Assembly (NCBI GenBank): GCA_031411095.1
Contig: JANOAK010000022.1
Span: 39,866 to 103,865, forward strand
DNA: 64,000 nucleotides
Direction of reading: 5' to 3'
Source: Flavobacteriales bacterium
GTDB lineage: Bacteria; Bacteroidota; Bacteroidia; Flavobacteriales_F; PHOS-HE28
Position 1 is the first letter of the stretch. The number at the start of each line of letters is the position of its first letter. Below are positions 3,764 through 42,638 of this stretch, piece by piece. The notes below the pieces were generated by a model. The model did no database searches and had not been told where the DNA came from. It saw only the letters and a list, made by a program, of their open reading frames with translations. The position numbers and the translations under genes were made by a program.

Positions 3764-4738
3764 TCACTCGCACACAAGCGTGTCGTAGTAGGCCGCCCAA
3801 CCCGCCCAGATCCCCAACCCGCCCGTGATGTTGCCTCGGGCATTGGCCGGGGTGCTGAAGAGATCGCCCGCACTGGCCACGTTGTTGTCGTAGGTGGTGT
3901 AAAAGTTCGCCTCCCGCTGGCCCATGCTCACCAGCTTCATGATCACGGAGTCGCCGCGCAGGAAGTACCCGGCCGTCTCATCATTGGAGTTATCCGTGAA
4001 CGGTGAACGACCGCGAACGGCAAAGAGGTCCACGGTGAGACCGTTGAGGTACTTGTCGTCGAAGGTGGTGCCCAGTGGCGAGATGAAGCGGGTGTCCTCG
4101 ATGAAGTCGGGATCGGCCGAGTAAATGCGACGTGCATAGTGGCGGTATCCGTTGCCCATGGTATCGGGATCGGAGAGCCGGCCCCAGATGTACCCACTAC
4201 TGTCATCGTCGGCATTCTGCTCGGCCAGTCGCCACCAGGTGGAATCCCAAGGGACCACGTTGGGGATCGTGGTCACGGCCGAGCATGATCTTCCATCCCC
4301 CTGGACATTCAGCGTGTACGTACGGCCACTCTCCCCGATCATGGAACCATCGAGGAGCGAATACACCGTGATGTTCTGGAGGAGCGCCGGGTCGATGCCG
4401 GTCAGTTCGGCGGCTTGGGCCAGTTGTTCCTGTGTAAGGCCGGTGAAGCCGATCTCCTGGAGCGTTACGGTGGATGTGCCGTCGTTCACGGTGATCTGCG
4501 CACCGTTCACGAAGATGCTGGCGATGGAGTTGAGGTCGGTGGGGGCGAAGTAGCTCTGCGTTCTGGTGAGGAGCACGATGGGAGGCAGGCCCTTCTCGAT
4601 GGTGCCCTCCACCACCAGTTTGGCCTCGGTCATGGGCAGGTCCACCACCACTTCCTTTTCACAGGAGATGAGCGTGATCGCGACGAGTGCGGAGAGGATG
4701 AGCTTGCGAAGAAGGCTCGTGGACGTGGGAGAGGGCAT
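3764..4738 (-). CDS. DUF4249-family lipoprotein (usual partner of TonB-dependent receptors)
   Basis: 324 aa with lipobox LISC. Located immediately downstream of a TonB-dependent receptor, as is typical for DUF4249. Confidence 0.65.
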   Translation of the reverse strand: MPSPTSTSLLRKLILSALVAITLISCEKEVVVDLPMTEAKLVVEGTIEKGLPPIVLLTRTQSYFAPTDLNSIASIFVNGAQITVNDGTSTVTLQEIGFTGLTQEQLAQAAELTGIDPALLQNITVYSLLDGSMIGESGRTYTLNVQGDGRSCSAVTTIPNVVPWDSTWWRLAEQNADDDSSGYIWGRLSDPDTMGNGYRHYARRIYSADPDFIEDTRFISPLGTTFDDKYLNGLTVDLFAVRGRSPFTDNSNDETAGYFLRGDSVIMKLVSMGQREANFYTTYDNNVASAGDLFSTPANARGNITGGLGIWAGWAAYYDTLVCE

Positions 4739-8476: not shown

Positions 8477-10522
8477 ATGTTGCGCACCAGCGACGTTCTG
8501 CTTCGCATCGTGGCAGTGGCCGTGGTGGGGTCTGTTCATGCGGACAATGTTGTAGGGCAAACGGAAGCGGACCTTCCAACGGTGTTTGAGCAGATCTCAG
8601 GCATGCTCGACCACGATCAGGTGGCGGAAGCGGTCCTGCGGATCGATGACCTCGCGCAACGCAGCAACAATGACCCCGGCCTGGCACAACTGGTCGTGAT
8701 CATGCAAGCCCGGCTGCGTCGAATGAACGGCGACGTCCGCGGCGCATACCACCTGGTGGACTCCCTGAAAGTGAACGAGGAACGGCCCGATGGCCAGTTT
8801 CTGAGCTTCCTGGTCCTGGCCGAGAAGGCGCGCGATATGAAAAGCTTGAAGCTATATGACAAAGCCGAGTCGTTCGCGTTGCACGCCTTGAGCATATCCA
8901 CGGAACAGGGCCTGGTGCGGGAACAGATCGATATGCACATCCTGCTGGCCGAGATCGATCGGCGACAGTTCCAGCCCGATGGGGCGATCGCCAGGCTGAA
9001 CACGGCGGAGCGGATGTTGATGCGGGTTGAACACCCCAAGGGTCGATGCAATGCGCTGATCAATCGAGCGAACCTCTATTTCGATCAGGATGACATTCCC
9101 CGGGCGATCGAACAATACCACGAGGCGCTGTCCTGTGCCAATGCCGAAGGCTTTCCGGTGATCGCCGAGAATGCGATCTTCAACATAGCCAGCGCCACCT
9201 CCAAACTGCCGGAAGGCGACGAACCGGCGATCGCCTTCCTGGCCAGCCAGTTGAATACGCCAAAGGCACGATCCGATCTGTCCTTGCGTTCGGAGATCCT
9301 CTCGAGCATGGGACTGTTCAACAATGACCTGGGCCGGCCGAAAGAGGCGCGTATGCGGCTCGGCGAGTCACTCGAACTGGCCATTCAAGCGCACGACACG
9401 GCACAAATGGCGAGTGTGTACCTATACCTCTTCCGCACCTACACGACCTTTGGATATCCGGACAGTGCGCGTCAGGCGATCGAGCGTGCGGCCGAGCTCT
9501 TTAGGGATAGTGGCAACCTGCAGCGATTGATGGAAGTGGAAGAGCGTCAGGCTGAGATGTACAAGGACATGGGGGACTACAAGACAGCCATGGGCCATCT
9601 GTTAACGTTCAGCAAGTACAACGACACCCTGAACCAGCGGTTCTACAGCGATGAACTGGCCAACCTGAACGTGGCCTTTGATTCCGAGAAGAAGGACGCC
9701 AAGATCAAGTTGCAGGATGCGAACATCACACGGCAACGCATCGGCTTGATCGCCGGGGGCAGTGTGCTGTTGTTGTTGGGGGTGATCAGCCTGGTGCTGA
9801 TGATGAACCTGCGGCAGCGCAGGCAACTGGCCGAAAAGGAGCGGCGCCTCCACGAACAGCAGGTGAACGACCTGATGCAACAACAGGAGATCCGGGCGCT
9901 GGATGCCATGATGGAAGGGCAGGAAAAGGAGCGGCGACGCGTGGCCAAGGACCTGCACGACCGGCTGGGGAGCATGCTCAGCGCGATCAAGCTACAGTTC
10001 AGCGCGCTGGAAAGCAAGGTGGAACAGGTGCAGCGCGAACAACGCACGCAATACGAGCAGGTGTTCGGCATGCTGGACGACGCCGTGGCCGAAGTGCGCA
10101 GGGTCTCGCATGATATGGTGCGGGGGTCGCTCGCACAGTTCGGGTTGCGCGCAGCGCTGGAGGACCTGCGCATAGCGTTGAACGTGCCCGGCAAGCTGGA
10201 AGTGGAGATGAACCTGTTCGGGCTGGATGGCAGGCTAGATCAGAAAGTGGAGATCGGGGTGTACCGCATGGTGCAGGAATGTGTGAACAATGCGATCAAG
10301 CACTCACGCGCCGGCCACCTCGGCATCAGTGTAACACGCAGTGCGGCCACGTTGAACATCATGGTAGAGGATGACGGCGTGGGCTTCGACCCCGATACCA
10401 TCAAGGAGGGCATGGGTCTGGGCAATCTGCGACAGCGCGCAGCGGACCTGAACGGCCAGGTGCGTTTCGACTCCCGCCCGGGCCACGGCACCACAGTGAA
10501 CATCGACATCCCCCTGGCGTAG
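8477..10522 (+). CDS. TPR-repeat sensor histidine kinase (HisKA_3/HATPase_c)
   Basis: 681 aa. N-terminal signal peptide. TPR-like repeats. TM segment (IGLIAGGSVLLLLGVISLVLMM). Coiled coil. H-box HDRLGSMLSAIK. ATPase N/G boxes (NNAIKHS..., DDGVGF...GMGLGN). Confidence 0.85.
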   Translation: MLRTSDVLLRIVAVAVVGSVHADNVVGQTEADLPTVFEQISGMLDHDQVAEAVLRIDDLAQRSNNDPGLAQLVVIMQARLRRMNGDVRGAYHLVDSLKVNEERPDGQFLSFLVLAEKARDMKSLKLYDKAESFALHALSISTEQGLVREQIDMHILLAEIDRRQFQPDGAIARLNTAERMLMRVEHPKGRCNALINRANLYFDQDDIPRAIEQYHEALSCANAEGFPVIAENAIFNIASATSKLPEGDEPAIAFLASQLNTPKARSDLSLRSEILSSMGLFNNDLGRPKEARMRLGESLELAIQAHDTAQMASVYLYLFRTYTTFGYPDSARQAIERAAELFRDSGNLQRLMEVEERQAEMYKDMGDYKTAMGHLLTFSKYNDTLNQRFYSDELANLNVAFDSEKKDAKIKLQDANITRQRIGLIAGGSVLLLLGVISLVLMMNLRQRRQLAEKERRLHEQQVNDLMQQQEIRALDAMMEGQEKERRRVAKDLHDRLGSMLSAIKLQFSALESKVEQVQREQRTQYEQVFGMLDDAVAEVRRVSHDMVRGSLAQFGLRAALEDLRIALNVPGKLEVEMNLFGLDGRLDQKVEIGVYRMVQECVNNAIKHSRAGHLGISVTRSAATLNIMVEDDGVGFDPDTIKEGMGLGNLRQRAADLNGQVRFDSRPGHGTTVNIDIPLA

Positions 10523-11379: not shown

Positions 11380-11456
11380 CGGGGTGTAGCGCAGCCCGGT
11401 AGCGCACTTGCATGGGGTGCAAGGGGCCGCTGGTTCGAATCCAGTCACCCCGACCA
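11380..11456 (+). tRNA. tRNA-Pro (anticodon GGG)
   Basis: Hand-folded cloverleaf. Acceptor CGGGGUG/CACCCCG. D-arm GCGC-AGCCCGGUA-GCGC. Anticodon arm CUUGC-AUGGGGU-GCAAG (GGG). T-arm GCUGG-UUCGAAU-CCAGU. Discriminator A plus encoded CCA. Confidence 0.88.
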
Positions 11457-37427: not shown

Positions 37428-37973
37428 ATGAATGCGCTGATCCGGCTCACCCCGTGGTGTGATGAGTGGTCCTGTTGCGATGCCAGCGGAGGCGTACGGC
37501 CATCAGGCGGAGGCGATAGCTGCCGAGGCCGATTTTGGGATGTGCTACCAACACAGGATGGCGGCTTCATCATGAGCGGTTTCGCTAACGGGCCATTCAA
37601 TGGGCCTTACCCACCAGGCTATTCCCAAGATGCCTGGGTGGTGAAAGTGGACAGTATGGGTTGCGTGGTGCCGGGGTGCGATGGAGTAGGTGTAACGGAG
37701 ATCATCACCAATTTGAACGATGCGCTCACAGTGTATCCGAATCCTGCGCATGGGCAGGTGCAGGTGGGCATTCAACTACCTCAACACTTGCTGGGCACCG
37801 ACTTGCACCTGAGCATTGTGGCGGCGGACGGTCGCTTGGTGCGACGAGAGGAATGGCCGAAGAGCAAGACCACAGGCACATTGGACATCCACGCCCTGTC
37901 TCCCGGCCCGTATACGTTGCATGTCACCGATGGCAGCAGGTGGATCACGGGAACGAAACTCATGATCGAATGA
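37428..37973 (+). pseudogene. N-terminally truncated T9SS C-terminal-domain protein fragment
   Basis: Only a CTD-like tail is recognisable (…ALTVYPNPAHGQVQV…LSPGPYTLHVTDGSRWITGTKLMIE). The N-terminal 100 aa has no enzymatic or signal features. Stop codon lies inside the first hairpin repeat. Confidence 0.4.
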
Positions 37974-38072
37974 ACCACATTTCTCCCCTCCCAGCGGCGT
38001 GGCGAGGCTTTGCGAGCCATATCGCCGCGTAACTCAGGGAGGGGTTGGGGGAGGGTTCGATACTTCTTTGTG
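37968..38072. repeat. hairpin-forming ~100-bp repeat, copy 1 (variant 1)
   Basis: GAATGAACCACATTTCTCCCCTCCC...TTGCGAGCC...GGGAGGGGTTGGGGGAGGG. Terminal inverted C-rich/G-rich arms. Confidence 0.8.
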
Positions 38073-38088
38073 GAAGACCATAGGAGCC

Positions 38089-38448
38089 ATGGGCACTTTT
38101 CATGACAAGCCTGAATTGCGCGACGTGCGCCGGGCCTTGCGCCGCGACGGTACCCCAAGTGAAGCGCTCTTGTGGCTCCGTCTTAAGAACAGACAGGTGC
38201 ATGGCCGCCGGTTCAGACGGCAGCACGGCATCGGCCCATTCGTGGTCGACTTCTATTGCCCTTTGGAGCGGTTGGCCATTGAGCTTGATGGGAGTGTGCA
38301 CAACAACGCCATAGCCTCAGCGAATGACCAAGCTCGCCAGGCGTGGCTGTATGCGCAAGGCATCCGGGTGATACGGTTCGATAACCAGGCCATCCTTGAC
38401 GACATGGAAGGAGTGGTCGATGCGATCGCCAATGCATTCAGGAAATGA
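38089..38448 (+). CDS. DUF559 (Vsr/restriction-endonuclease-like fold) domain protein
   Basis: LRLKNRQVHGRRFRRQHGIGPFVVDFYCPLERLAIELDGSVHNN...RQAWLYAQGIRVIRFDNQAI is the DUF559 signature. Start taken at MGTFHDK. Flanked by hairpin repeats on both sides. Confidence 0.75.
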   Translation: MGTFHDKPELRDVRRALRRDGTPSEALLWLRLKNRQVHGRRFRRQHGIGPFVVDFYCPLERLAIELDGSVHNNAIASANDQARQAWLYAQGIRVIRFDNQAILDDMEGVVDAIANAFRK

Positions 38449-38455
38449 AGATGGA

Positions 38456-38742
38456 GAAGATGAACCCTCCCCCGGCCCCTCCCTGTGTATTGCGAGCCGC
38501 TGTGGCGGCATCGCGGGAGGGGAGAATTGCACGAAACTCACGGCAGAATGAACCACATTTCTCCCCCGGCCCCTCCCTGTGTTTTGCGAGCCGCTGTGGC
38601 GGCATCGCGGGAGGGGAGAACTGCACCAAACTCATGACCGAATGAACCCACATTTCTCCCCTCCCAGCGGCGTGGCGAGGCTTTGCGAGCCATATCGCCG
38701 CGTACCACAGGGAGGGGCTGGGGGAGGGTTCGATATTTCTGT
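38456..38742. repeat. three tandem hairpin-forming ~95-bp repeats (variants 2, 2, 1)
   Basis: Units at ~38456-38545 and 38546-38639 (…CCCTCCCCCGGCCCCTCCCTGTGT(A/T)TTGCGAGCCGCTGTGGCGGCATCGCGGGAGGGGAGAA…). Unit 38640-38742 is identical in type to copy 1. Confidence 0.8.
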
Positions 38743-38968
38743 GGATCAAGCGTCCTTCATTCACACAAGTTGACCACACCAAGAGCGCAAAGAAATGGCC
38801 GGAGGCCCGGTGCATCACCGCACGCGGGAAACACCCGGATCTGTCTGGCGCTAGGCAGGCACGGGCGTGATGGAGGCGTGATGAGTGGTCAAGCCGGAAC
38901 ACCAGCGGTCAACCGTCTTCGAGCGACGGCAATAGCTTTGCCCGCATCAATTGATCATCCCACCGCCC

Positions 38969-39775: not shown

Positions 39776-39846
39776 AAATCAGGAATCAGGGATCAGGAAT
39801 CCTAAATCAGGAATCAGGAATCAGGAATTCGCAATCAGGAATTCGC
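39776..39846. repeat. heptanucleotide microsatellite (AATCAGG)n, ~10 units with variants
   Basis: AAATCAGG AATCAGG GATCAGG AATCCTA AATCAGG AATCAGG AATCAGG AATTCGC AATCAGG AATTCGC. Overlaps the last 4 codons of the holin-like gene. Confidence 0.85.
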
Positions 39847-40224: not shown

Positions 40225-40330
40225 GACCTGCGGCCTGCCTCCTGCCTATTGCCTCCCGACTTCGCCGGGACCTTCGGCCTGCCTACTGCCTACTGCGCCT
40301 GCCCCTGCCAACTGCCAACTGCCCCTGCGC
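40225..40330. repeat. C/T-rich heptamer-like microsatellite (CCTGCCT/ACTGCCT/CTGCCAA)n upstream of the holin-like gene
   Basis: CCTGCCTCCTGCCTATTGCCTCC...CCTGCCTACTGCCTACTGCGCCTGCCCCTGCCAACTGCCAACTGCCCCTGCGCC. Seen directly. Confidence 0.6.
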
Positions 40331-40339
40331 CTGATCCAC

Positions 40340-42028
40340 CTACTGCTTCACCATCTTCCTCGCCAGGGCCTTGCCGTTCTGGGTGATCACCAGGAAGTAG
40401 GTACCGCTTGCGCGTTCGCTCATGTCGAGCACACGCTCGTAGTTGCCCTTGAAGCCGGTGATCGTTTCGTGGTAGATGCGGTCGCCGTTGGTATCGTGCA
40501 CATCCACGTCCAGATCGCCGCGTTCGGGTACATGAAAGGCGATGTTGAACGAGCCACCGCTGGGGTTGGGGTAGAGGCGGATGCCGGAAAGGTCCAGGGC
40601 CTTGTTGAGGGCGGTAACGCCTTTGTTCTTCAGCAATTCGGTCTCTTCCTTGTTCAGTTGTACGTCCTCGATGGTCACGCGCATTTCCCGTGTTACCTCA
40701 CCGCGCAGATCGTCGCGCAGGCGGTTCATCTCCTCGCGCAGCTCGTCCAGTTCGCGGCGTTGCTGTGCGCGGTCACGGGCCTGTTCGGCCATTTCGCGCT
40801 CCCGTTCGGCCAGGTCGCGTTGGTATTCCTCCTTGTCCCGCTCATATTCCATGCGATCCTCAGGGCTCATGTCCTTGGTGTCCAACTCGGGCATGGGCGG
40901 CATCGGCGGCATCGGTGGCATCGGCGGCATGGGTGGCATCAACGGCATATCGGGCATGTCCGGCATGGGGGGCATGTTCGGCAGCAGACCGTTCCGCATG
41001 CGCGCACCGCCTGGCTGCCTGCCGAGTTTTCCGTTCAGTGTGGTCTCCTTTCCGTTCCGCTGGATCGTCACTTCCACTTCATCACCCGGATCCTGAGCGC
41101 GAACTTCGTCGGAAAGTGTTCCGAAGTCGGCGATCGGTGTGCCGTTCAATCGGCGGATCACATCACCTTCGGCAAGGCCCATCTTCTGTGCGGCGCTGTT
41201 CTCCACCACGTTGGTGATGCGAACACCCTGGCCATCCTCCAGATCCTCGCCATCCACGCCGAGGAAAGCGCGATCGGCATTGGCTTGGGCGAAGGCATCG
41301 GCCCAGGCCTCCATGGCCCGCTCGTATTCTGCACCCACCGCATGCCAGTCCATTTCATCGGGGCCGTTTTCCTCGTCCTCCCGTTCGCCGAGGGTCACGT
41401 CCACGGTGCGTTTGTCCTTGCCGCGGTAGTAGGTGATCTTCACCTGATCGCCGGGGGCGCGCGTATTGATGGCGTCCACCAGCGCATCGCCGCTGGTGAT
41501 CGGGGTGCCATCGAAGTCCACGATCACATCACCCGGTTGGAATCCTGCTTTCTCTGCCGGTGTGCCCTCATCAACCCCCGTGACCGCGGCACCCTCCTTC
41601 ACAGGCGGCTCTTTCTTGCGGGCCTGTTTGTCCGTGCTAGCGTTCCACGTGCCGTAGAACACACCGAGGTAAGGCCGGGGCTCATCGGGCGCATCCTGCC
41701 TATCGGCCATGCTGAGGGCCATGCTCATGTCGTTCAGCAGGCCGCCACTGCGCATGCGCTTCAGGTCGATGGTGAGGTTCTCGCCATCGCTGATGCGGTT
41801 CATCTCATCCAACACACCCAGCTCGCGCAAAGCATCCTGCAACTGCTGCGCATCGTTCAGGTCGAACTCGCGCGTCACCTGGCTCTGCTTTCCGTTCTCG
41901 TTACGGAGGACCTCGATGCGCACACGGCGCTGATCGGTCTCTTCAGCTTCCTGCTGAGCGGCGAGAGGCACGCCCATGGAAAGTGCGAGCAGGCTGGCGA
42001 TGCCGTGGAGGTGGAGGGGTGTTTTCAT
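40340..42028 (-). CDS. secreted tandem-PDZ protein with (PMP)n linker, coiled coil and T9SS C-terminal sorting domain
   Basis: Signal peptide. Two PDZ-like segments (GVFYGTW...GDVIVDFDG; ITNVVENSAAQKMGLAEGDVIRRLNG). PDMPDMPLMPPMPPMPPMPPMPPMP linker. CTD ...LYPNPSGGSFNIAF...GTYFLVITQNGKALARKMVKQ. Confidence 0.8.
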   Translation of the reverse strand: MKTPLHLHGIASLLALSMGVPLAAQQEAEETDQRRVRIEVLRNENGKQSQVTREFDLNDAQQLQDALRELGVLDEMNRISDGENLTIDLKRMRSGGLLNDMSMALSMADRQDAPDEPRPYLGVFYGTWNASTDKQARKKEPPVKEGAAVTGVDEGTPAEKAGFQPGDVIVDFDGTPITSGDALVDAINTRAPGDQVKITYYRGKDKRTVDVTLGEREDEENGPDEMDWHAVGAEYERAMEAWADAFAQANADRAFLGVDGEDLEDGQGVRITNVVENSAAQKMGLAEGDVIRRLNGTPIADFGTLSDEVRAQDPGDEVEVTIQRNGKETTLNGKLGRQPGGARMRNGLLPNMPPMPDMPDMPLMPPMPPMPPMPPMPPMPELDTKDMSPEDRMEYERDKEEYQRDLAEREREMAEQARDRAQQRRELDELREEMNRLRDDLRGEVTREMRVTIEDVQLNKEETELLKNKGVTALNKALDLSGIRLYPNPSGGSFNIAFHVPERGDLDVDVHDTNGDRIYHETITGFKGNYERVLDMSERASGTYFLVITQNGKALARKMVKQ

Positions 42029-42564: not shown

Positions 42565-42638
42565 TGAGCCCGGAGGGATTCGAACCCCCAACCAACAGAA
42601 CCGGAATCTGTCATTCTATCCAATTGAACTACGGGCCC
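42565..42638 (-). tRNA. tRNA-Arg (anticodon CCG)
   Basis: Reverse complement folds as acceptor GGGCCCG / CGGGCUC (one G-U), D-arm, anticodon arm ACAGA-UUCCGGU-UCUGU (CCG), T-arm with UUCGAAU loop. No encoded CCA. Confidence 0.85.

Follow-up and report, generated by a model that had tools for sequence, protein, structure and literature searches.

A DUF559 gene lies among four structured repeats

This study concerns a locus in a Flavobacteriales genome at which a small gene of the DUF559 endonuclease family is enclosed by structured repeats. It lies in a 64,000-nucleotide stretch of DNA (assembly GCA_031411095.1, contig JANOAK010000022.1, positions 39,866 to 103,865 of the forward strand), which was analysed at its full length and is called the window; coordinates are those of the window unless another sequence is named. 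The locus is bounded on the left by an open reading frame (ORF) with a C-terminal domain (CTD) of the type IX secretion system (T9SS; 37428-37973) and on the right by an AIM24-family gene that starts at about 38951. Repeat units are named A, B, B' and A', and TM stands for triplex motif. The features of the locus are as follows.

37428-37973, plus strand: T9SS CTD gene fragment (Pfam Por_Secre_tail, E=6e-11, profile positions 1-75 of 75)
37953-37988, plus strand: first copy of a direct repeat, made of the last 21 nt of the T9SS gene and the first nucleotides of A
37968-38524, plus strand: conserved cassette, A + DUF559 + B (557 bp; 91.4% identity to L002/L107, a second Flavobacteriales locus)
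37968-38070, plus strand (G-rich strand): unit A, BoxC/TM-type; TM scan match 37984-38054; Y block CCCCTCCC 37985-37992, 44-nt loop with its own hairpin, R1 GGGAGGGG 38037-38044, TT, mirror block R2 GGGGGAGGG 38047-38055; outer stem GAACC 37972-37976 with GGTTC 38054-38058
38089-38448, plus strand: DUF559 endonuclease gene (Vsr-like PD-(D/E)XK fold; Pfam PF04480), 119 aa, intact ORF
about 38455-38530, minus strand (G-rich strand): unit B, TM element; TM scan match 38466-38523; third block CCCTCCCCC 38465-38473, GG, CCCCTCCC 38476-38483, 31-nt loop, GGGAGGGG 38515-38522
38546-38642, minus strand: unit B', a hybrid with an A-type left end (GAATGAACCACATTTCTCCCC) joined to the B-type loop and right arm; third block incomplete
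38640-38743, plus strand: unit A', second complete A-type TM, no gene adjoining; TM scan match 38657-38727

A preliminary description of this DNA had placed one repeat to the left of the gene and three to its right, with two variants in the order 1, 2, 2, 1, and this arrangement was recovered: the units run A, B, B', A'. A and A' share 95% identity over 96 nt, B and B' share 93% over 88 nt, and Tandem Repeats Finder gives a period of 94 at the locus. The layout of a unit is a C-block (CCCCTCCC), a loop, a G-block (GGGAGGGG), two nucleotides and a mirror G-block (GGGGGAGGG). As had been described, every unit has the C-rich and G-rich pairing arms CCCCTCCC and GGGAGGGG and a common central block, TTGCGAGCC (at 38010-38018 in A, 38490-38498 in B, 38584 in B' and 38683 in A'). 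The first loop measures 31-46 nt and the second 2 nt (TT or CT in A and A', CC in B). The start GAATGAACC(C)ACATTTCT, which had been ascribed to every unit, occurs in three of the four, but unit B starts with GAAGATGAACCCTCCCCC. The 19-nt motif GGGAGGGGNNGGGGGAGGG has four matches in the window, all at the locus, compared with 0.01 expected; B' matches it with two mismatches.

When the whole window was scanned for TMs (pyrimidine block, complementary purine block, mirror purine block; k=8, at most one mismatch), exactly A (+), B (-) and A' (+) were found; B', whose third block is degenerate, was missed. A and B are indeed two variants, but not merely variants in sequence: their third blocks differ in which side of the hairpin they adjoin (GGGGGAGGGTTC on the 3' side in A, GAACCCTCCCCC on the 5' side in B), and both face the gene. 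The core hairpin of B runs in the same direction as that of A, and because the extra block of B (CCCTCCCCC) is 5', the minus strand of B has the C-G-G order of A. The third blocks and adjacent arms make up a 26-27-nt inverted repeat around the DUF559 gene, 89-96% complementary.

Folding of single units, which had been suggested as a check, gave predicted RNA structures of -33 to -52 kcal/mol. A and A' folded at -41 to -52 kcal/mol on either strand (shuffle z about -4 to -5.5), with plus-strand values of -48.9 kcal/mol for A (z=-4.1) and -51.7 kcal/mol for A' (z=-4.0), and the minus strand of B folded at -44.8 kcal/mol (z=-3.0), whereas the folds of the B plus strand and of either strand of B' were not significant (z -1.2 to -1.6). 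For single-stranded DNA, the segment 37960-38540 is predicted to form a four-way junction that encloses the gene (-135.7 kcal/mol, z=-5.5), in which 37978-37992 pairs with 38515-38529 (left of A with right of B), 38032-38058 pairs with 38462-38488 (right of A with left of B), and both loop hairpins are retained. Each unit may fold as a hairpin, an intrastrand purine triplex or a G-quadruplex. Unit B' looks like a gene-less ('empty') joint between the left of A and the right of B, as expected upon removal of the gene and the inner arms.

Since the units fold strongly as RNA, the hairpins might act at the RNA level, either in control of the nuclease mRNA from its untranslated regions or as repeat RNAs that neutralize a toxic nuclease in the manner of type III toxin-antitoxin systems. 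Tandem repeat arrays do adjoin a potentially toxic nuclease, and many variants contain Shine-Dalgarno-like and anti-Shine-Dalgarno-like words (CCTCC / GGAGG). However, the downstream units are inverted and fold better on the antisense strand, identical elements occur solo and far from nuclease genes, the arrays are erratic in length (1-3 units) and include duplicated gene ends, and Rfam gave nothing at the gathering threshold for the units (at E up to 10, only eukaryotic chance matches of 11-20 bits). We consider an RNA-level role very improbable. A short ORF between 60-140-nt imperfect palindromes, several of them in a row, also recalls an integron gene cassette with hairpin repeats as attC sites. 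This explanation is effectively refuted: the units have no RYYYAAC / GTTRRRY core sites, the ORFs searched in the surroundings of the locus (about 35-42 kb) gave no recombinase match, no series of different cassettes is present, and the same repeats stand singly between housekeeping genes in many genomes.

The DUF559 protein

The DUF559 gene of the preliminary description is well founded, as ORF 38089-38448 is intact and matches Pfam PF04480 with E=1.5e-30 (105.7 bits, cut-off 20.6). The PDB relatives matched were 3HRL (E=6e-32) and 3R3P, the endonuclease I-Bth0305I (E=1.7e-5 with the family profile). The NCBIfam equivalog for Escherichia coli YcjD gave 71 bits, below its cut-off of 218; the window protein is thus a relative of YcjD and not its ortholog. 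In an alignment of 36 homologues, W29, R43-R44-Q45 (FRRQ motif), D54, E65, D67 and H71 are invariant; by analogy, D54, E65, D67 and H71 may be the catalytic core residues. The family is large, with 22,548 clusters at 50% identity matching the window protein (E up to 1e-3). No biochemistry of small stand-alone DUF559 proteins was found in the literature searched.

DUF559 is the only ORF of the cassette, and no transposase was matched with Pfam, PHROG or PADLOC. No anomaly of base composition was seen across the cassette. A defence-system reading was rejected; PADLOC returned only marginal matches, to DpdF and to a methyl-directed restriction enzyme.

The cassette follows the natural end of a T9SS gene

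The left repeat had been described as overlapping the stop codon of a truncated T9SS-CTD gene, which suggested insertion into a pre-existing gene. The overlap is real, the stop codon (37971-37973) lying within the first 6 nt of A. The truncation concerns the other end of the gene: compared with homologues, about 100 N-terminal residues are missing, and the ORF is therefore probably a fragment (the source annotation has only 133 aa, P0121), but the C-terminus is complete, its last residue coinciding with that of nine homologues (KLMIE compared with KFVVE or KLIVE). The cassette is consequently placed just after the natural stop and not inside the T9SS gene, and insertion into a gene is not supported.

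The first direct-repeat copy, the end of the T9SS gene joined to the start of A, recurs as imperfect 36-nt copies after B (38531-38566, 89%) and after B' (38625-38660, 75%). Similarly, L002 carries a diverged copy of about 65 nt of its own T9SS gene end after B. A 34-nt direct repeat (37456-37489 and 38875-38908; 74% identity, with the 13-nt exact core GTGATGAGTGGTC) brackets the T9SS fragment, the cassette and the extra units; these copies could be the junctions of a larger inserted block, or they could be due to chance (about 0.06 expected for the exact core).

The same cassette is found at a non-orthologous place

The two nearest protein homologues of the window DUF559, 87% and 77% identical, are in two other Bacteroidota assemblies, and both have the A-gene-B layout. 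One of them is L002, a locus of a Flavobacteriales metagenome-assembled genome on the same contig as L107. Window positions 37968-38524 and L002 positions 9879-10434 are 91.4% identical in nucleotide sequence over 560 aligned columns, and the identity stops sharply at the outer ends of A and B. Upstream, the T9SS genes of the two loci share just 46% protein identity, and downstream the genes are unrelated (AIM24 in the window, non-ribosomal peptide synthetase/polyketide synthase in L002). The 557-bp cassette is therefore present, with sharp-edged 91% conservation, at a non-orthologous place in a second genome. With L003, the cassette shares 77% nucleotide identity and the flanks share no homology. 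In L003, units A and B are each present as three tandem copies, and every B copy carries a duplicated 3' end of DUF559. Apart from one weak motif at L002 position 8223, 20 kb of L002 and L003 contain no clear TM outside the cassette.

Compared with L002 and L003, the DUF559 gene has dN/dS ratios of 0.27 and 0.08, respectively, and is thus under purifying selection. Between the window and L003, synonymous divergence (dS) is 1.7 and saturated, yet the repeat units are still 84-90% identical; in B, 33 nt of loop and arm are the same in five of six copies, with one substitution in B3 of L003. The repeats themselves, loops included, are therefore constrained, and they are conserved more strongly than the synonymous sites of the gene. 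In the alignment of unit A, 58 of 91 columns are invariant.

T9SS homologue loci that lack the cassette (L193 and L194) contained no triplex motifs; they are not orthologous empty sites.

The repeats resemble the BoxC/PIT/TM class

BoxC was reportedly first noted by Bergler et al. in 1992, adjoining envM (fabI). From their sequence, the units are assigned to the BoxC/PIT/TM class, a membership that the preliminary description had missed: a three-block criterion (blocks of at least 7-8 nt, at most one mismatch) picks out A, B and A'. They are intergenic, the convergent A/B pair has TT in the second loop of one unit and CC in that of the other, and one cluster was seen in 64 kb.

This class of potential intrastrand triplexes was rediscovered by Hoyne and Maher (2000, 2002) under the name of PIT elements and surveyed by Holder et al. 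(2015; PMC4666352). The TMECO pattern of that survey is CCCTCNCCC N3-6 GGGNGAGGG N3 GGGNGAGGG; it has 23 copies in MG1655 and 3,610 in 262 proteobacterial genomes. The E. coli TMs form triplexes in vitro, have second loops of two types, TTA and CCG, and include five convergent pairs, each with both types (PMC4666352). The survey describes TM loci as excessively rearranged among E. coli strains and states that no mobility function was found near TMs; the words 'endonuclease' and 'ycjD' are absent from it (PMC4666352).

The window units share with these elements the three-block order, the intergenic position, the convergent inverted pairs and the local rearrangement, and their TT/CT and CC second loops recall the TTA and CCG types, with the assignment reversed in L003. 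They differ in the first loop, which is 31-46 nt long with a conserved hairpin compared with 3-6 nt in TMECO, in their blocks (CCCCTCCC / GGGAGGGG compared with CCCTCNCCC / GGGNGAGGG), in their Bacteroidota host and in that the pair encloses a gene, whereas published work associates no mobility or nuclease gene with TMECO. The strict TMECO/ITxF definitions (loops of 1-6 nt or N3-6/N3; TMECO words) do not retrieve the window units; given their first loop and their words, they are members of the wider class and not strict TMECO. Repeats of Methanomicrobiaceae, which in vitro are in equilibrium between G-quadruplex, hairpin and antiparallel triplex, have the same block layout (GGGGGGTGGGGG-N3-GGGGAGGGGG-loop-CCCCCTCCCC) and are likewise interspersed and unassigned in function, but they are archaeal and no associated gene is reported (PMC8044849).

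DUF559 genes and triplex motifs are associated across phyla

A pattern scan of 185,579 species-representative genomes, in which GCGAGCC was required in the loop, gave 108 matches; because of this requirement the matches are a biased sample that is uninformative on abundance. The exact A and B forms were found only in the representative genome of L107, which has just two pattern matches, both flanking its DUF559 gene; about 100 related hairpins are spread over many phyla. DUF559 was the only protein family recurrent beside these hairpins (10 loci, including Rhodospirillales, Devosia, Anaerolineae, Myxococcales and Coatesbacteria).

The generality of the association was assessed with 80 metagenomic loci that carry DUF559 relatives of 40-53% identity and range in G+C content from 33 to 68%. 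TM density was 1.86/kb within 250 nt of the gene and 0.12/kb beyond 500 nt (about 16-fold). In the 150-nt flanks, CCCCTCC/GGAGGGG was present at 52 of the 80 loci (25-fold over distant sequence) and GGGGTGG/CCACCCC at 48 (20-fold). These words are oriented: upstream of the gene GGGGTGG predominates on the sense strand, and downstream its complement does; formal TMs behave likewise. At 36 of 69 loci, compared with 1 of 160 position controls, one flank had an inverted copy of 14 nt or more of the other. Most of 13 loci inspected by eye, with or without a strict word, have related hairpins with variant words in the same layout, and this layout was also seen at plasmid-borne DUF559 genes of Deinococcus, Azospirillum and Picosynechococcus. 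Two topologies exist, with the third blocks proximal to the gene, as in the window, or distal to it (L147, L197 and L198). A downstream duplication of the DUF559 3' end is occasional and not general (3 of 76 loci: L003, L189 and E. coli). In conclusion, small DUF559 genes, E. coli ycjD included, are paired with TM elements across phyla and with an orientation bias.

No link between DUF559 or ycjD and BoxC/TM repeats was found in the literature searched. A search for programmed inversions, itself built on inverted repeats, found 'DUF559 domain-containing protein' enriched among its predicted targets, with an odds ratio of 14.3 (PMC9881135).

Several individual loci are worth describing. On a plasmid of Synechocystis sp. 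B12 (CP101712.1; L197 positions 1400-1925), a DUF1156 (DNA-methylase-like) gene contains a TM + DUF559 + TM cassette, located between ...DLYPGIEP and YLWTRTVKCP. The corresponding DUF1156 site of pAQ6 of Picosynechococcus PCC 7002 (L199 positions 2700-2985) has a C5/G5 triplex-motif array of about 270 nt, stop-free and in frame (PQPSPPAPMNGGE...); as this array is translated in frame, triplex-motif arrays can live inside ORFs. At L129, a direct repeat of about 100 nt (1754-1856 and 2622-2725), which comprises a TM unit and the first eight codons of the downstream rdgB-like gene, flanks TM units and DUF559. Some DUF559 relatives are 260-380 aa long with two or three DUF559 stretches (P0135-P0138 and P0141), and many others have N-terminal extensions of 40-70 aa; both probably arise where gene prediction ran on through adjoining repeats or tandem cassettes.

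TMs could be autonomous hot spots of recombination and instability, as has been proposed for E. coli, next to which small, often transferred genes such as DUF559 accumulate or between which they are trapped, the nuclease being functionally unrelated to them. The greater rearrangement of TM loci among E. coli strains, as described in the survey (PMC4666352), would agree with this, as would the host gene ends duplicated beside TMs in the window, L002, L003, L129 and E. coli, and the arrays found even inside a DUF1156 ORF. A passive trap would, however, leave unaccounted for the recurrence of DUF559 as the sole family beside the hairpins, the oriented arrangement with third blocks or outer arms symmetric around the gene, and the joint conservation of repeats and gene while synonymous sites saturate. 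We regard it as distinctly unlikely.

ycjD and the TMs of E. coli

The E. coli K-12 gene ycjD (b1289) is annotated as encoding a DUF559 protein and has sapF and fabI as its neighbours. On its 3' side (L192 positions 4180-4410) come a degenerate motif, then a duplicated ycjD 3' end of about 50 nt, then TMECO no. 9; this gene-end duplication is of the same kind as that in L003. We take the TMECO no. 9 / ycjD-fabI site to be the original boxC locus of 1992. TMECO no. 9 (1,351,239-1,351,204; Table 1 of Holder et al.) is separated from ycjD by 168 bp on the downstream side; given 23 motifs in 4.6 Mb, the chance of a motif within 200 bp of one given gene is about 0.002. Convergent E. coli TM pairs (for example at hrpB-mrcB) have the topology of the cassette, the gene being replaced by a spacer of 17 nt.

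Of 5,426 complete E. coli genomes, 3,375 contain the ycjD region and about 38% lack it. In an evenly spaced sample, ycjD+ genomes had 10-25 TM places (median 17, n=37) and ycjD- genomes 1-14 (median 3, n=23); the difference (Mann-Whitney p=9e-10) is confounded by phylogroup and not phylogeny-corrected, so that a lower TM number in ycjD- E. coli is only suggestive. One ycjD- strain had a different upstream segment instead of a clean empty site.

DUF559 may instead be a host housekeeping or repair nuclease, of the Vsr-like mismatch or methylation-linked kind, and the TMs ordinary intergenic repeats that insulate, punctuate or regulate; gene and repeats would then travel together via ordinary recombination, without self-propagation. 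The single-copy state of E. coli ycjD, at one chromosomal site, suits this explanation; purifying selection on the DUF559 gene and the position of most TMs away from DUF559 genes suit it as well, and Caulobacter VsrA, which is SOS-induced, causes methylation-dependent DNA damage (PMC12907096). It sits poorly with a cassette that is 91% identical and sharp-ended at a non-orthologous site, and with the same arrangement, with co-varying words, in phyla of unrelated regulation and of G+C contents from 33 to 68%. As to regulation, intrinsic-terminator T tails and a sigma-70 promoter were looked for at the locus and none was found, and, according to the account that Holder et al. give of work by Maher and colleagues, PIT elements have no promoter or terminator activity (PMC4666352). 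On balance, a host nuclease next to ordinary repeats is unlikely, although it deserves some weight.

A proposed cassette with its own nuclease

With modest confidence, we favour the reading that the locus is a compact cassette, a functional DUF559 gene between two convergent TMs, to which the extra units B' and A' and the gene-end copies were added by local duplication. DUF559 would be the element's own nuclease and may recognize G-run/C-run words or folded TM DNA and nick or cut there; the inclusion of the homing endonuclease I-Bth0305I among the PDB relatives of the family fits this reading, as does the enrichment of DUF559 among predicted programmed-inversion targets (PMC9881135). If breaks were repaired from a second TM-flanked template, for which the TMs served as homology arms, the gene and the repeats would spread, and the same copying would duplicate adjacent host sequence and leave solo units and gene-less inverted pairs. 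DUF559 and TMs would in this respect parallel the RAYT transposases and their REP/REPIN repeats. Action of DUF559 on TM DNA would explain the inverted-repeat bracket, the tandem arrays and the duplicated gene ends, and also the solo units, the gene-less pairs and the reported instability of TM loci.

A broader proposal is that small stand-alone DUF559 proteins, YcjD included, are the cognate nucleases of BoxC/PIT/TM repeats, together forming a cross-phylum class of minimal selfish elements that has so far gone unrecognized, in which a Vsr-fold nuclease gene lies between ends that form triplexes or hairpins. We advance it tentatively, as a possibility that falls somewhat short of probable. Under this proposal, the element would seed solo and paired repeats and drive local instability, and would be RAYT/REPIN-like in function and mechanistically unrelated.

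A number of observations weigh against a self-propagating cassette. At the locus itself, no clean target-site duplication was found, the only candidates being the imperfect 36-nt copies, which extend into the element itself, and no second copy of the cassette was seen within the 64-kb window. All three Flavobacteriales cassettes directly follow T9SS-CTD genes of one family, a placement for which we have no explanation; recombination via conserved gene ends is one possibility. Elsewhere, no strict three-block motif lies within 250 nt of the gene at 44 of the 80 DUF559 loci, and most Hyphomicrobium TMs are far from any DUF559 gene. Loci L117-L171, a metagenomic group with cassettes 85-97% identical, looked like independent insertions in different contexts, but alignment revealed one orthologous rdgB-adjacent locus with variable repeat arrays, and they were therefore not counted as evidence of mobility. 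In E. coli, genomes without ycjD still have 1-14 TMs. To our knowledge, DUF559 has no biochemical link to TM DNA and is not a known transposase or recombinase. The Caulobacter DUF559 protein VsrA has an apparent host function tied to cytosine methylation (PMC12907096). The preliminary description had named repeats without DUF559 genes, and DUF559 genes without repeats, as a sign of coincidental juxtaposition; both do occur (22 of 23 E. coli K-12 TMs are away from a DUF559 gene), but the association is too strong for coincidence.

Comparison with known mobile systems

The locus had been likened to a small selfish cassette, similar to a miniature inverted-repeat transposable element (MITE) with cargo. 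This holds as an analogy, given the sharp-ended unit, the layout that recurs across phyla and the gene-less inverted pairs of E. coli; what does not carry over is insertion into a gene and a clean target-site duplication. The terminal inverted repeats, the gene-less short derivatives and the strongly folding single strand are common to MITEs and their parent insertion sequences, but the cassette has neither a DDE nor another transposase, no defined target-site duplication, and ends made of triplex motifs.

A closer parallel in organization is provided by repetitive extragenic palindromic (REP) sequences, REPINs and RAYTs (REPtrons), in which a single small nuclease-type gene lies between inverted copies of a palindromic repeat and solo units and inverted doublets occur elsewhere (for TMs, in E. 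coli); the E. coli copy number is apparently lower where the gene is absent. The cassette protein, however, has a Vsr-like PD-(D/E)XK fold and is not an HUH Y1 transposase, and the repeats are G-run/C-run triplex motifs rather than REP hairpins with a GTAG head; nuclease action on them would be the counterpart of RAYT activity. Vsr-like EDxHD homing endonucleases (I-Bth0305I, 3R3P) have a homologous core (E=1.7e-5) and are also small, selfish-looking genes that move with short flanks, but the cassette gene is intergenic, after a stop codon, and not in an intron or intein, has no known long asymmetric target and is flanked by structured repeats.

Neither the repeat class nor the protein family is new; the novelty lies in the Bacteroidota repeat form with its long loop, in the cassette as a unit that carries a gene and in the general pairing of DUF559 with BoxC/TM elements. 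BoxC/PIT/TM elements, known since 1992 and catalogued in hundreds of genomes, are unexplained in origin, partner protein and function beyond a link to instability, and small DUF559 members are without an assigned role (E. coli ycjD is still a y-gene). Their consistent, oriented pairing across phyla makes each a candidate partner of the other. A functional link would establish a new type of minimal mobile or selfish element and account for one class of recombination hot spots, and it might yield a structure- or G-run-specific nuclease. If the link is not functional, the locus is still a clear and well-bounded example of a horizontally moving gene-plus-repeat cassette.

Other features of the window

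Two intergenic heptamer tandem repeats lie to the right of the locus, AATCAGG x9.4 at 39777-39842, after the AIM24 gene, and CTGCCAA x6.7 at 40279-40323, before a putative PDZ-domain gene. The latter is a 562-aa ORF (40340-42028, minus strand) in which a 9-nt periodic repeat at 40890-40983 encodes an (MPP)n / PMPPMPPMP low-complexity tract; by eye, its C-terminus resembles a T9SS sorting tail, and its PDZ domains are a guess. An ordinary bacterial RNase P class A RNA is encoded at 254-697 (229.7 bits), and two ordinary tRNA genes are at 11380-11453 and 42565-42638.

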